A stretch of DNA of 62,872 nt, filler included. It is 15 parts of 15 records of this genome, joined end to end, with 100 filler letters (N's around TTAATTAATTAA, not from the genome) between each part and the next. Parts side by side here need not be neighbours in the genome. Positions count along the whole stretch, not along the records: positions 51,977 to 56,661 come from SRR7504441_21799; 14 more parts are not named here. The stretch is one strand, 5' to 3'. Of the stretch, positions 8,035-57,005 are shown piece after piece; position 1 is the stretch's first letter; each line of letters opens with the position of its first letter. The notes beneath the pieces are model-generated. The model was not told where the DNA came from. It did no database searches and was given only the letters and a program-made list of their open reading frames with translations. Both the position numbers and the translations under genes were made by a program.

Positions 8035-8134
8035 NNNNNNNNNNNNNNNNNNNNNNNNNNNNNNNNNNNNNNNNNNNNTTAATTAATTAANNNNNNNNNN
8101 NNNNNNNNNNNNNNNNNNNNNNNNNNNNNNNNNN
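8035..8134. other. Artificial contig-joining linker (first of 14)
   Basis: N44-TTAATTAATTAA-N44 (stops in all six frames). Also at about 11333, 14850, 18338, 22127, 26264, 29538, 32812, 36000, 39208, 44136, 48777, 51877 and 56662. Confidence 0.98.
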
Positions 8135-11332: not shown

Positions 11333-11466
11333 NNNNNNNNNNNNNNNNNNNNNNNNNNNNNNNNNNNNNNNNNNNNTTAATTAATTAANNNNNNNNNNNN
11401 NNNNNNNNNNNNNNNNNNNNNNNNNNNNNNNNGGATTTCCGTTGGGTGCCTGGCGCCGGGCGTGAG

Positions 11467-51876: not shown

Positions 51877-51976
51877 NNNNNNNNNNNNNNNNNNNNNNNN
51901 NNNNNNNNNNNNNNNNNNNNTTAATTAATTAANNNNNNNNNNNNNNNNNNNNNNNNNNNNNNNNNNNNNNNNNNNN

Positions 51977-52176
51977 GGACGCCGCGGGCAACAAGGTGGA
52001 CCAGGCGCTGGTGGAGCTGCATAAGGTGACGGCGGGCCGGTCGGGGGCCGACGGGCGGGCAGACCAAGGCGTATAAGGATGCGTACGATAAGAAGAAGTG
52101 GTGCGTCATCATCAGCTGTGTGGTGCTGTTGCTGGTCGGCGGTGTGGTGCTGTATTTCGTGCTAAGAAAGAAGTAG
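51977..52176 (+). CDS. C-terminus of a syntaxin-like SNARE (partial)
   Basis: VDQALVELHK|TKAYK..KKKWC followed by a tail-anchor TM helix. Confidence 0.65.
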
Positions 52177-52452
52177 AGAACGCGGTTTCCTGTCACGCTA
52201 TACTCCACTAATAAGTTGATACATCGCAAACTGCAACCTCGATCATAAAAATACGTACTGTATTACTGGTACGAGTACTCTTACTCGTACCGTACAATGT
52301 CATGTATGAGTACAAGTAGATGACCAAGCTTACATGTAAGCTCCGTAATACTACATGCGCCTCTCGCAGCAGTGAAAAAAAGTTTTATTCACTTCATGCG
52401 TGCACGAGGCGGACTTACCGTACATGTATTAGGACTTATCTCAGGTTGTTGA

Positions 52453-55400
52453 TTATTTTTTGATGTCGATTTGCAGCTCGTAGTCGTCCAACGAATCGGA
52501 AGAACTCACCCCAAACCCAAACCTCAGCCCGACACGAGCCGTGCCACCGACGCTGAGCTCGACCGCGGGCTGACGCAGCATGCGGACGCACTGGTGCTGC
52601 TTGTCGGACATTGAGCGCAGCGCCAGTTGGTCCGAACCGATGTTTCCATACTCCAACCACATCACAACCGCATCGCAACGGCCCGTATGAACCACCTCGC
52701 TGTAACACCATTCCGAGCACCGAGCAGGGAGCTCGTCGCTGCCGAGCTCAATTCGGGCCAGCTCGATCGGCGTTGTGAGCAGTTGGTGTTTGTACTGCCA
52801 CATAGGTAAGTTGAGGTCATGACCGTCCAGCCTGGCTGCTTGTGCAAACAACTGGTGGTCAAACCCACACACTTGCTCCGGAGGACTATAACTGGCCTGG
52901 GCGCCGTCGAATTGCACAAGGCAGGCCACCACACTGGCCGAGCTGGGCACCACCAGGGCGTCCTGCCTGACCAGCCCACGCCGCTTGAGCGCCCGTGTCG
53001 TATAGAAGAAGTTGAGCGCCTGATGGATTGGCCAGCCGTCTAGCCGCTCATAGTAAGGCTCGCCCATGACGATATCAGCCGGCCCTCCAAGCACGTGTTC
53101 TAGCTGCAGCTGGCTGGTGCACTCGACCGCAGTCACGCGGAAACATTCCGGGTCTGTGACACCGTTGGCTTCACATAGCTTGGCTGCGAGCCCGAAGGCA
53201 GCATCCGAGCTGCGCTCCAGCGAGGTCACGCATGTGGCACCCAGCGACGCCGCGAGGAGTGCGGCCACAGGCCCGTTAGAGACGTCCAGACAGCAGGCGT
53301 CCTTCCCGCGCGCCCCAAGCGCGTGCTCGATGCCGGTCCTCAGCGAGTTTAGCCGTTGGAAGTCGTTGAACTGAAGCACACGGGGTGGTGCAACCTGGAC
53401 GTGCGACGAGGCGTCGGGTTTGGTTTTCTTGGCAGCCGGCGGCCCGGCCCGAGACAGCTTGAACTGCACCTCTTGGTCGGTATGCGCCACCACCAGCTCA
53501 ACCTGCCGCTTTGAGCCCTCCAGATCGAGCTCCAGCGTGCTCTCGACGTCGAGTGGGTAGAGGGTCTGGGGCCAGTGGTCCTGCCAGTGGTCTTGCTGGC
53601 CGTGCCGCGTCGAGTACCATCCGGCTGATCCGATCTCAAGTTCCCACCAGGTCAGCACTCCATGGACCACCCCGGCGCCGGTCGCCTCGACCGAGACCGA
53701 AACCTCCCGGCCCGCCTCTGGTGGCAGCGCTTCGGCAGTCCGAAAGTCAAACTCGAGAGCCACCAAGCCCTCACTCAAGGCGACTGTGCCCTTGCTAAAC
53801 AACTCCTGGGCATGCAGCGGGACTGCGGTCGACTCGGCCCACACAGGAAGCACCAGCCCGTGCGCCGCGGACTGCACTGAGCTGTAATCCGCCGCTATGC
53901 CTCCTCCGACGAGCTGAGCGTACAGCCGGGCTCGACTGGGAATCACAGTCGCGCCTGGCAGTAGCAGCCGGGCCCACGCGTCCCGGAGCGTGGGCAGTAT
54001 CCCTTCGCCGATCAGCGCGTAGTCGAGCAACTCTGAGACGCACAGGCTGGCCTTGTGGTCTCGAGAGACTTGGTTGCTCTGAGCCGCCAGCACCTGAATC
54101 GAGCGCTGCAGATTGTTGGCATCCACAAGCTGCTCTGCAAGCTTGGCCATTGGGCCTGCCATCTCGCAAGCCACGACCCTTGCGCCCACCGAATACGGGA
54201 CTGACGGCTGGTGCCACCCGGGACGGCAGCTGGCCGCCTGCATGGCAAGCAGGCCGGTGCCGGTGCCAATGTCGAGCACGGCCGCCTGCTCGTCTGGCGG
54301 CTCATCTGTCAGGCCCTCCACGGCTTGCTTGATCGCGGCCATGTACATCTCATTCCGCCTGTCACATCATCAGCCTCAATCTGGCCGCCCGCAGCCACCT
54401 GGCGTCGTTCAGCATCGGCAGCATCCATCGCTTGGTCCGAACATGCCGCACAACTGCCGCGTCCGGCGAGGTGTCGCGGTCCCATATCAATCCTCCGTTG
54501 TTCGGATCAAGGCGGCTGACTAATGTAATCAACTCGGGATCGCCCTCCGCTGGAGCAAGCTCGAGCATGACAACTTGATTCAGCCCGGCCGCCTGCAGCC
54601 CGTGCTGGATCGATAAATCGCTCTGGACCAGCTCGCGCCAATCGATTGGGGGGCCGGCGTGATCCCTCCTGATGCACGTTGGCAGGTGGTAGCTGTTAGA
54701 ATCAAAGTATCGAAAGGCAGTTGCCTCCCAGATGGCCTTGTCCGATACGTCGATATCCATCGGGCTGAAATCGCAGTCGAATCCGAGCCCGGCCAGCTCC
54801 ACCTTGATCACCTGCCAGAGCTGTGAGCACCACGAGCGAGCAAGACCGAACACCTCACACGCCACACCAAGAAAGAAGACGTTGTCTGAGATGCCGTTGA
54901 AGAACGAATACATGCCTCCAGGTCGGACCAACTGCCGTCATCCACACTCAATCCCCGCCATTAGGCGTGCCACCGTGGGTAAATGCTGGTGAAACTCCCG
55001 GAGGTGCCCGACGTCGTCAAAAGTATCGAAAAACACCGAGTCAAAGTCACCCACAGAGTCAACCACATCCTGCCACCGGGCGAACACGATCCGCACATTC
55101 GGCTTCTTGTCCCACCCGTCCCGGATCATCTTGGCGTGCACCTCCCCCCCCGCTCCCAGGCTGTTTGACTGTCATCTCACCTGCGGGTGCGCCTCGATGA
55201 TGGTATGAGATCGAGGCGAGAGCTCCTGTATGGCCGTGTCGATCAACCCCATCCCAAACCCGATGTTGAGCACGTCCCCGCCCGCCCGGCACAACTCGGC
55301 AGCATGTTGTACCATCAGCGGCCCCTCCCAGGCCATCATCACCTCGCCCACCCCTCGCGCCGGCCCGGCAACCACACCCACCCCTCGCTCCTGATCGTCA

Positions 55401-55834
55401 ATCAGGTCGCCCGTATCGTAGCTCACCCGCCGCCCCAGATAGCCCGTCTCCTTGCTCGGCACCAACGAGCCCCGCCGCTCGCCTTTCTCCAGCGCGGCGA
55501 ACATCAGCTCCGCCTGCCCGCCGGTCACGCCCCCCCCGAATGGCCAGACCTGCACCCCGGCAGTGACCAGTCGGTCGACCACCGCCTGGTGTCCAGCTCG
55601 GAGCGCATGGTCCCCGGCGCACCGGCCGGCCCGGTCCACCGCGTTCCAGGGCGCACCGCACCCGAGCAGCAGCTCCACCGCGCCCATCTCGCCAGCCCCG
55701 GCCGCCAGCATCAGCGGACTGACCCCATCCGACTCGCGCTGGTGGTGCACCGGCTGCCCGGCCGCCAGCGCCGCCCTCAGCCCGTCCAAGTCGCCGGCCG
55801 CCGCCGCTGCAAGCAGGCTGGCACAACAATCCAT
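52453..55834 (-). CDS. Fusion of ankyrin-Rmt2 arginine methyltransferase and PRMT7-like double-domain methyltransferase
   Basis: Rmt2: GAPWNAVD, VMMAWEGPLM, VLNIGFGMGLID, HTIIEAHP, RWQDV, FFDTF, YSFFNG, YHLP. Continues in frame to PRMT7: SRLDPNNGGLIW, MLNDAR|RNEMY, VLDIGTGTGLL, VSELLD..LIGEG, WQDHWPQ, second module FNDFQR..MGEPYY. Confidence 0.88.
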
Positions 55835-55897
55835 CGTGCGTTCGGGGGCGATAACTGAACGGATTCACCCTGGCCGGGCAGGGAAGGGACGGGGAGG

Positions 55898-56644
55898 ATG
55901 GGCAAGCTGTGCTCCAGCGAGCCGCAGGACGGGCTGCTGGCGCTGGACCGGACGGCCCGCCAGCCCAAGCGGTCCAATCCGAACAAGCTGTCGATCATGC
56001 TGCTCGGCGAGCCCGGGGCGGGCAAGACCGGGATCGTGCGCCGGCTGCTCCAGCGACAGCTCCAGGACGAGCCGATCCCGAGCTCTGGCGTGGAGTACGA
56101 CCAGCTTCGGCTCCTGCTCGACGGAGCCTCCTGGGCGCTCCAGCTGTGGGACGTCCCCGGCAGCGTGTTGGCCGCCCAGGGCCGGAACTGCTCCCCGCCG
56201 CCGTATGCCAGCTGTGACCTATTTGTTTTGGTGTACGCGGTGGACAGCGAGCGCAGCTTTGAGCGGCTGGAGGAGTGGCGACAGTTCGCTTTGGCTCAGA
56301 TCCCGGAGGATCTGCGCGAGAGCGCCACGTTTCTGGTGCTTGGTAATAAGGCGGACCAGTGGTACAGGTGGTCTGCCGGCCTGGGCGAGGCCGGAGCCGG
56401 CAGGGCAGGCGGGAGGTGAGCCAGCAGGACGTGAAGAGCTACTGCGCGCGGTGTGGGATCGGGAACGAGGACATTCCGATGGATTTCGAGACTGGGCTCG
56501 ATCAGCAGGATGCGCCGTACCCACACACTAGGCCGGTAGGTCCTGGGCTCGGCCGGGCCGGAGGGCGGGTCACAGGTGTTCCAGGCGGTGCTGCGGTCGG
56601 TGCTCCGGAGATGGGCGCAGCTGGGCTGGGTCGGGGTCAAATGA
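55898..56644 (+). CDS. Divergent Rab-like small GTPase with N-terminal acylation motif
   Basis: MGKLCS; G1 GEPGAGKT; G3 WDVPG; LVYAVDSERSF; G4 GNKAD; 2 introns; no C-terminal Cys. Confidence 0.8.
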
Positions 56645-57005
56645 AACTGTTAGGGGGGGGGNNNNNNNNNNNNNNNNNNNNNNNNNNNNNNNNNNNNNNN
56701 NNNNNTTAATTAATTAANNNNNNNNNNNNNNNNNNNNNNNNNNNNNNNNNNNNNNNNNNNNCCAAGAGCCTCAGAGGCCTTGGGATGGGCACGAAAATTC
56801 ATACGCCCGCAAACGCCCTACGACCGAGTCTGAGCCCAAGCCGGACTGTTCTGCCGCAAGGACGCTCTGAGAGCGTTCAGCTGAACGCTGGAGCGCTTGT
56901 GAACGACAACAACAACGAACCCACCTAGGCAGCTTGGCAGTGGCTGCAGGCGCCGGGCAGTGCGACTAGTGCGAGCGGCGGAGCCCCACTGACCGGGCGG
57001 GTGTC

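Follow-up and report, generated by a model that had tools for sequence, protein, structure and literature searches.

Does the minus-strand locus at 55834-52453 of the DNA analyzed here encode an Rmt2-type arginine methyltransferase and PRMT7 as a single polypeptide, or do two genes lie end to end? The whole stretch, referred to below as the window, is 62,872 nucleotides long and consists of 15 contigs of 3-8 kb with artificial N44-TTAATTAATTAA-N44 spacers between them. The locus lies wholly within one contig, 51977-56661 (4685 bp; SRR7504441_21799). A first-pass annotation, made from the sequence alone, had proposed one protein composed of ankyrin repeats, Rmt2 and PRMT7. The present analysis favors a genuine Rmt2-PRMT7 fusion gene, a single gene of eight exons predicted to encode a protein of approximately 1034 residues, with a probability of about 0.7. 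The single open frame that had been described was found and passed all of the sequence-level tests that were run (continuity, coding signature, composition, introns and repeats); that one protein is made from it is held at the probability just given.

An unbroken exon joins Rmt2 to PRMT7

Homology to the two enzymes is spread over four minus-strand stop-to-stop frames, 55864-55172, 55171-54938, 54937-54362 and 54366-52453. The gene model has seven introns, all of 36-42 nt and all GT-AG, and a product of 1034 amino acids in which about three ankyrin repeats are followed by the Rmt2 domain, a short connector and a full PRMT7. No in-frame ATG lies between the preceding stop and the start, ATG 55834-55832, and the gene ends with TAA 52455-52453.

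As the first-pass annotation had claimed, there is no stop codon after YHLPTCIRR (54691-54665), the carboxyl end of the Rmt2 domain. The frame 54937..54362 continues unbroken through LVSRLDPNNGGLIW to MLNDA as one exon. Between the end of Rmt2 and the first in-frame ATG (54568) there are 32 codons, 54664-54569, which are referred to here as the junction. The 40-nt GT-AG intron that had been placed at 54359-54398 proved to be exact; its removal gives ...MLNDARRNEMYMAAIK..., which restores collinearity with the stand-alone PRMT7 homologues.

The coding potential of the junction was evaluated with a codon table derived from the 11 long open reading frames of the window (6808 codons). The junction scored 0.30 bit/codon in the fusion frame versus -0.27 and -0.23 in the other two frames, and the exons of the gene scored 0.12-0.29. 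Both halves of the junction were alike, with 0.29 for the first 14 codons and 0.31 for the last 18. In a control block comprising exons 7 and 8 with intron 7 (52456-54357, 1902 nt), the true frame was the best in all 602 of the 96-nt windows. Of 542 stop-free windows read off-frame or antisense, 20 reached the score of the junction, as did only 2 of 20000 shuffles; true in-frame windows scored the same or lower in 142 of 223 cases.

The base composition was also that of an exon. The G+C content of the junction at codon positions 1, 2 and 3 was 0.78, 0.38 and 0.75, the pattern found in exons, and the seven introns, when read in the host frame, mostly lacked this periodicity. The overall G+C content of the junction was 0.60-0.68. 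Eight of 20 open reading frame ends in the window, that of PRMT7 included, have DNA with a G+C content of 0.43 or less within 120 nt downstream. No such AT-rich DNA resembling a 3' end was seen between the Rmt2 and PRMT7 parts.

Part of the junction resembles PRMT7 itself. In 16 of the 27 HMMER alignments on the PRMT7 side, the match starts at query residues 105-114, 8-17 residues before the internal Met (residue 122), and these early starts pair with residues 2-17 of stand-alone PRMT7s. Judged from the alignments, the last ~15 codons of the junction are homologous to the PRMT7 amino terminus. A profile of an N-terminal motif of protist PRMT7s, described below, aligns to SIQHGLQAAGLNQVV within the junction, collinear with the downstream homology. 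No ATG lies within this PRMT7-like N-terminal segment, and upstream of it in-frame ATGs occur only within Rmt2. Since ~15 of the junction codons align with PRMT7 N-termini, the true connector would be only ~14-17 residues long (DHAGPPIDWRELVQ...), which is close to the length of the tails that follow Cys-Ile-Arg in stand-alone Rmt2s (2-11 residues). The linker of about 45 codons in the first-pass annotation was sound as a stop-free run-on, but only about 14-17 codons lack a counterpart in either parent family.

Alternative explanations

The first alternative is that two products arise from the one locus. PRMT7 would be made mainly or only from ATG 54568, by means of an internal promoter or internal initiation, with the Rmt2 frame simply running on into it, so that the enzymes are separate and a fused isoform is optional. 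The start Met of both closest homologues, P0007 and P0008, which have predicted starts at the same position, aligns exactly with ATG 54568, and it is possible that this codon is an ancestral start that has remained usable. Promoters in this DNA can be tiny and GC-rich, there being only 63 nt between ATGs 55834 and 55898. However, a separate PRMT7 start leaves Rmt2 without a stop codon of its own. Moreover, the 32 codons that precede the ATG carry the coding signature in the fusion frame, some of them align with the N-termini of other stand-alone PRMT7s, and nothing among them resembles an AT-rich 3' end. Two separate enzymes are on this evidence unlikely.

An error of assembly or consensus could also conceal the stop codon of Rmt2, either because a base was called wrongly (the C6 run near 54650 is one candidate site, and a stop misread as sense is another possibility) or because of a chimeric join; two ordinary genes, neighboring or unrelated, would then appear fused. 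The junction is known from one 4.7-kb metagenomic contig alone, which is of low coverage, and has no independent cover. Contigs of three marine runs (85% likeness) supplied only scattered pieces, none of them in 54332-54802, and the one run search listed no RNA runs among those sharing sequence; neither result is evidence either way. A single substitution would turn several of the junction codons into stops, and stops are present in the other two frames at 54582-54580 and 54509-54507. Against an error of this kind, the fusion frame keeps its coding signature before and after the C run, the off-frame scores are negative, and Rmt2 read in a shifted frame would extend over the segment homologous to the PRMT7 amino terminus. 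If there were two genes, their 3' end and promoter would have to fit into at most 60 nt. The chimeric junction, an objection raised in the first-pass annotation, was checked at the sequence level: no repeats longer than 15 nt touch the junction to seed a mis-join, and both halves share the same rare class of intron (36-42 nt) and the same composition. An artefact is accordingly considered quite improbable.

The third alternative, a hidden intron, had likewise been raised in the first-pass annotation. An unseen intron in the junction might shift the frame so that Rmt2 ends at a stop of its own, PRMT7 being produced from another transcript. Four in-frame, stop-free introns of this gene would be invisible without homologues, so that another might have escaped notice. 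All GT..AG pairs of 30-90 nt in 54720-54480 were therefore enumerated. Seven of the 20 pairs are in frame (30, 36, 39, 42, 57, 69 and 84 nt). Those that shift the frame and introduce a stop are 46-85 nt long, beyond the 36-42 nt observed in this gene, and in the four that use the donor at 54677 the invariant Cys of LPxC would be lost. Among the candidates of 30-42 nt, the only one that shifts the frame (41 nt) removes conserved PRMT7 residues and brings in no stop in the 152 codons read. No intron of the local size class that would give Rmt2 its own stop was found in 54720-54480, and this explanation is very improbable.

In addition to the aligned start Met and the single contig, three findings weigh against a fusion gene. 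The N-terminal motif profile is weak when taken alone, with a score of 2.9 bits that was matched by 54 of 5000 shuffles. All six stand-alone Rmt2 proteins P0001-P0006 end shortly (2-11 residues) after the conserved Cys-Ile-Arg, but the frame studied here continues into PRMT7. Finally, a scan of JGI metagenomes with a PRMT7 alignment turned up only three loci, all distant (32-33% identity), and tblastn with three Rmt2 proteins detected no Rmt2 in any of them, the 1.7-9.3 kb upstream included; thus, there is no conserved synteny to explain the origin of a fusion.

The Rmt2 half

The ankyrin repeats score above the curated Pfam cut-offs, given here in parentheses: Ank_2 35.4 bits (27.3), Ank_4 27.2 bits (22.7) and Ank 23.3 bits (21.1). 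The Ank_2 match has an E value of 1.6e-8 and covers residues 8-96. The exons of the Rmt2 part are 50%, 73% and 58-63% identical to the stand-alone proteins P0001-P0006 (341-351 amino acids). Homologues are labeled at source as RMT2, K18477 or 'type IV protein arginine methyltransferase'; P0002, P0136 and P0140 are named RMT2, type IV PRMT or PRMT2-type. The close homology across the catalytic domain places this half in the Rmt2 family. The Pfam copy that was used does not contain the Rmt2 model, PF27704, which occurs only in precomputed annotations, and NCBIfam returned only sub-threshold matches to ankyrin or generic methyltransferase models. When the PDB sequences were searched, ankyrin proteins dominated the matches of the Rmt2 profile, and a 56-residue exon gave nothing meaningful.

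The fold was evaluated on a predicted structure of the homologue P0005, and not on the fusion protein, using a 12-sequence alignment (predicted local distance difference test, pLDDT, 83.3). The five best PDB matches of this model were human or rat guanidinoacetate N-methyltransferase (GAMT; 3orh, 1xcj and 1khh), with a target TM-score of 0.70-0.76. P0005 is thus predicted to have the GAMT-like fold of the class I S-adenosylmethionine (SAM) methyltransferases; the SAM-binding motif VLNIGFGMG is present in the fusion protein, and GFG.G is invariant across the 12-sequence alignment. Rmt2 is a GAMT-like enzyme, with which the P0005 model agrees, and it methylates the delta nitrogen of arginine. 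From its sequence, the amino half of the fusion protein is a GAMT-like Rmt2-type arginine methyltransferase domain.

The stand-alone protist proteins P0001-P0006 have the same layout as the N-terminal part of the fusion protein, ankyrin repeats and a GAMT-like methyltransferase. Yeast Rmt2, unlike the fusion protein, has no ankyrin repeats. To our knowledge, Rmt2 is the sole type IV arginine methyltransferase and has one known substrate, in yeast only.

The PRMT7 half

The last two exons, read as 634 codons through the in-frame intron 7, match mouse PRMT7 (4c4a) with an E value of 9.4e-34, query residues 1-571 being aligned with residues 44-618. The same query matches C. elegans PRMT7 (3wst; E 3.1e-25). 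A single alignment spans residues 1-571, so that two tandem PRMT modules are present in one chain, in agreement with the first-pass annotation, which had both modules follow the Rmt2 part. In module 1, VLDIGTGTGLL, SELLDYALIGEG and WQDHW align to VLDIGTGTGLL, TELFDTELIGEG and WRDHW of 4c4a and are invariant in the homologue alignment; all three catalytic motifs of this module, motif I (VLD[IV]G.G.G), the double-E loop and the DHW loop, are therefore present. Module 2 has the degenerate pattern typical of PRMT7. The nearest relatives are the stand-alone proteins P0007 (664 amino acids, 47% identity, 100% query cover) and P0008 (680 amino acids, 44%). By these comparisons the carboxyl half is a complete two-module PRMT7.

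Characterized PRMT7s make only omega-monomethylarginine, and module 2 of PRMT7 is inactive. The physiological substrates of PRMT7 are still debated. Mouse PRMT7 (4c4a/6ogn), C. elegans PRMT7 (3wst/3x0d), P0007 and P0008 share with the fusion protein the tandem modules, the motifs of module 1 and the degenerate module 2. Many stand-alone protist PRMT7s have their own start codon at the amino terminus; in contrast, the fusion has none there and is preceded in frame by Rmt2.

A motif, M-x(1-3)-[DS]-[IV]-x-x-A-[LI]-x-x-A-[RK]-Y-N-[ED]-x-V, is common to the amino ends of many stand-alone protist PRMT7s, where it stands before the LV..LD..NGG..W strand. It is carried by P0059, P0075, P0104-P0106, P0111, P0114, P0115, P0131, P0132 and P0135, among others. 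The predicted proteins P0007 and P0008 are without it.

Occurrence of the architecture

The first-pass annotation knew of no described example of this architecture, and none was found in the protein-cluster and literature searches. An HMMER search of 1.84 billion cluster representatives with the junction exon gave 105 matches at E <=0.001. These and P0184 were re-scored: 78 of the 106 proteins matched on the Rmt2 side only, 27 on the PRMT7 side only and one was an unrelated repeat protein. None matched both halves, which answers the further objection that the architecture might already be common. A word-indexed search of 5.8 billion clusters gave 6 matches among 963 candidates of 311-2000 amino acids, all stand-alone Rmt2. 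The same search at 97-310 amino acids, aimed at junction-spanning fragments, gave two matches, both Rmt2-side fragments, and with the PRMT7 body at 348-1110 amino acids it gave 26 matches, none with Rmt2. A scan of genome contigs with the junction exon produced 469 pattern matches, of which none was confirmed. A full-text literature search, judged from the opening lines of the abstracts, yielded no description of an Rmt2-PRMT7 fusion. The Rmt2-PRMT7 combination is probably a new domain architecture of known enzyme families.

Two other proteins have a related organization. P0116 (765 amino acids) is an ankyrin-Rmt2 protein with a C-terminal NTM1-type methyltransferase (Pfam Methyltransf_PK, E 2.2e-61); its cluster has 14 members (the others are P0171-P0183), which are found on many marine contigs. 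As in the fusion studied here, ankyrin-Rmt2 is joined at its carboxyl end to a second protein methyltransferase. However, the partner in P0116 is an N-terminal (alpha-amino) methyltransferase and not PRMT7, the linker is ~190 residues rather than ~14-17, and the fusion recurs across assemblies, whereas the Rmt2-PRMT7 junction has been seen once. P0024 (1033 amino acids; 'predicted RNA methylase' at JGI) likewise has an extra methyltransferase domain before the PRMT7 body. Its N-terminal partner is a class I methyltransferase (precomputed Pfam Methyltransf_25 and Methyltransf_11), not Rmt2, and the record begins inside that domain.

Possible function of the fusion protein

In yeast, the only substrate listed for Rmt2 is Rpl12a/b (uL11), at R67, and both Rmt2 and Ntm1 methylate Rpl12 (PMC10265986). 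P0116 thus joins two enzymes that act on one substrate. This independent and better attested fusion lends credibility to a shared-substrate logic, and by analogy the partners in the PRMT7 fusion may share a target that is ribosomal or linked to translation. Given the yeast substrate and the ankyrin-Rmt2-NTM1 fusion, the ribosomal stalk-base protein uL11 or its neighbors would be the likeliest shared target.

A mechanism can be proposed in which the substrate would dock at the ankyrin repeats, a feature also conserved among the stand-alone relatives, while the tether would keep the catalytic centers of Rmt2 and of the active PRMT7 module together on one substrate particle with a 1:1 stoichiometry. 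The fusion protein might in this manner couple two arginine chemistries, as had been suggested in the first-pass annotation. A broader idea is that Rmt2 may serve repeatedly as a hub to which enzymes modifying one ribosomal protein become fused; as a Rosetta-stone link, the fusion would then indicate that PRMT7 also methylates uL11 or its neighbors, with delta- and omega-methylarginine installed by the single chain on one and the same substrate in one encounter. This extension is speculative and doubtful. A natural Rmt2-PRMT7 fusion would be a guilt-by-association clue to a common target or pathway, and it would provide a ready-made construct with which to ask whether arginine delta- and omega-methylation are coordinated.

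Gene structure

The coordinates of the exons, introns and neighboring features are collected in Table 1. The first-pass annotation was right about the intron that it named, but comparison with homologues gave seven introns in all and not one to three. In six of the seven, the length is a multiple of 3. Introns 1, 2, 5 and 7 are detectable only as insertions bounded by GT and AG relative to the homologues. Intron 7, the probable one, is also a gap versus mouse PRMT7; the insertion is ~10-13 residues, and its donor, GTGGCA, is identical to that of intron 4. In-frame, stop-free introns of 36-42 nt in the genes of this organism are translated as protein by callers based on open reading frames.

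Intron 2 sits in an imperfect 30-nt tandem repeat (family D2). A tandem repeat around this intron would fit intron gain through tandem duplication.

Table 1. Features of the Rmt2-PRMT7 locus and its surroundings (positions in the window)
Feature	Coordinates	Strand	Evidence or remarks
Exon 1: start and ankyrin repeats	55550..55834	-	50% identical to P0005; Pfam Ank_2
Intron 1, 36 nt, GT-AG, in frame, stop-free	55514..55549	-	Exact 12-residue gap vs. P0005
Exon 2: spacer, ankyrin to methyltransferase	55382..55513	-	Collinear with P0005
Intron 2, 39 nt, GT-AG, in frame, stop-free	55343..55381	-	Exact 13-residue gap vs. P0005
Exon 3: Rmt2 methyltransferase domain, SAM-binding motif VLNIGFGMG	55181..55342	-	P0005 alignment
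Intron 3, 39 nt, GT-AG, in-frame TGA inside	55142..55180	-	Removal restores EAHPQ/VHAKMI, collinear with homologues
Exon 4: Rmt2 domain, FDTFDD region	54974..55141	-	73% identical to P0005 residues 214-268
Intron 4, 42 nt, GT-AG, in-frame TGA inside	54932..54973	-	Removal restores HQHLPT/LVRPGGMYSFFNG as in homologues
Exon 5: Rmt2 domain	54854..54931	-	Homologue alignment
Intron 5, 42 nt, GT-AG, in frame, stop-free	54812..54853	-	14-residue insert missing in 6 of 6 homologues, GVACE-x-x-K-[ILV]-EL
Exon 6, part 1: Rmt2 C-terminal end, ...YHLPTCIRR	54665..54811	-	23 invariant columns with six Rmt2 homologues
Exon 6, junction: 32 codons (DHAGPP...LNQVV), no stop, no ATG	54569..54664	-	
Internal in-frame ATG, possible alternative PRMT7 start	54566..54568	-	Aligned to first Met of P0007 and P0008
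Exon 6, last part: PRMT7 N-terminal region, LVSRLDPNNGGLIW ... TKRWMLPMLNDA	54399..54565	-	54% identical to P0007 and P0008 (aligned region)
Intron 6, 40 nt, GT-AG, frame-shifting	54359..54398	-	Removal gives NDARRNEMYMAAIK, collinear with P0007 and P0008
Exon 7: PRMT7 module 1, SAM motif I VLDIGTGTGLL	54218..54358	-	Motif identical to mouse PRMT7
Intron 7, 39 nt, GT-AG, in frame, stop-free, probable	54179..54217	-	Sole insertion of at least 4 residues vs. P0007 and P0008
Exon 8: remainder of module 1 (double-E loop SELLDYALIGEG, WQDHW), module 2 (CLDVSNG, MGEPYY), stop	52453..54178	-	
AT-rich 3' region past the PRMT7 stop, G+C 0.35-0.48	52180..52452	-	
Convergent gene end, hydrophobic C-terminal tail-anchor-like segment, possibly SNARE-like	52030-52176	+	Translation reading
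Small-GTPase gene, Ras/Roc/Arf-like	55898-56419	+	Divergent, head to head with fusion gene

Source of the DNA and neighboring genes

The DNA is eukaryotic and compact, with ~60% G+C. In the run search, three runs shared parts of the window (0.05-0.08 of the sampled words), and all three were marine or seawater metagenome DNA. The gene probably belongs to an uncultured microbial eukaryote of marine origin whose genome is compact and whose introns are tiny. The nearest named relative of the Rmt2 part is a protein from the transcriptome of Rhynchopus humris (61% identity), and those of the PRMT7 part come from a choanoflagellate and oomycetes (28-30% identity); neither is informative on the host lineage.

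The spacers of the window occupy 14 sites (8035-8134, 11333-11432, ... 51877-51976, 56662-56761), and features that run across them are artefacts of the concatenation. Downstream, the stops of the fusion gene and the convergent gene are separated by ~276 nt of AT-rich DNA. Upstream, the small gap between the ATG of the fusion gene and that of the divergent small-GTPase gene suggests a very short bidirectional promoter.

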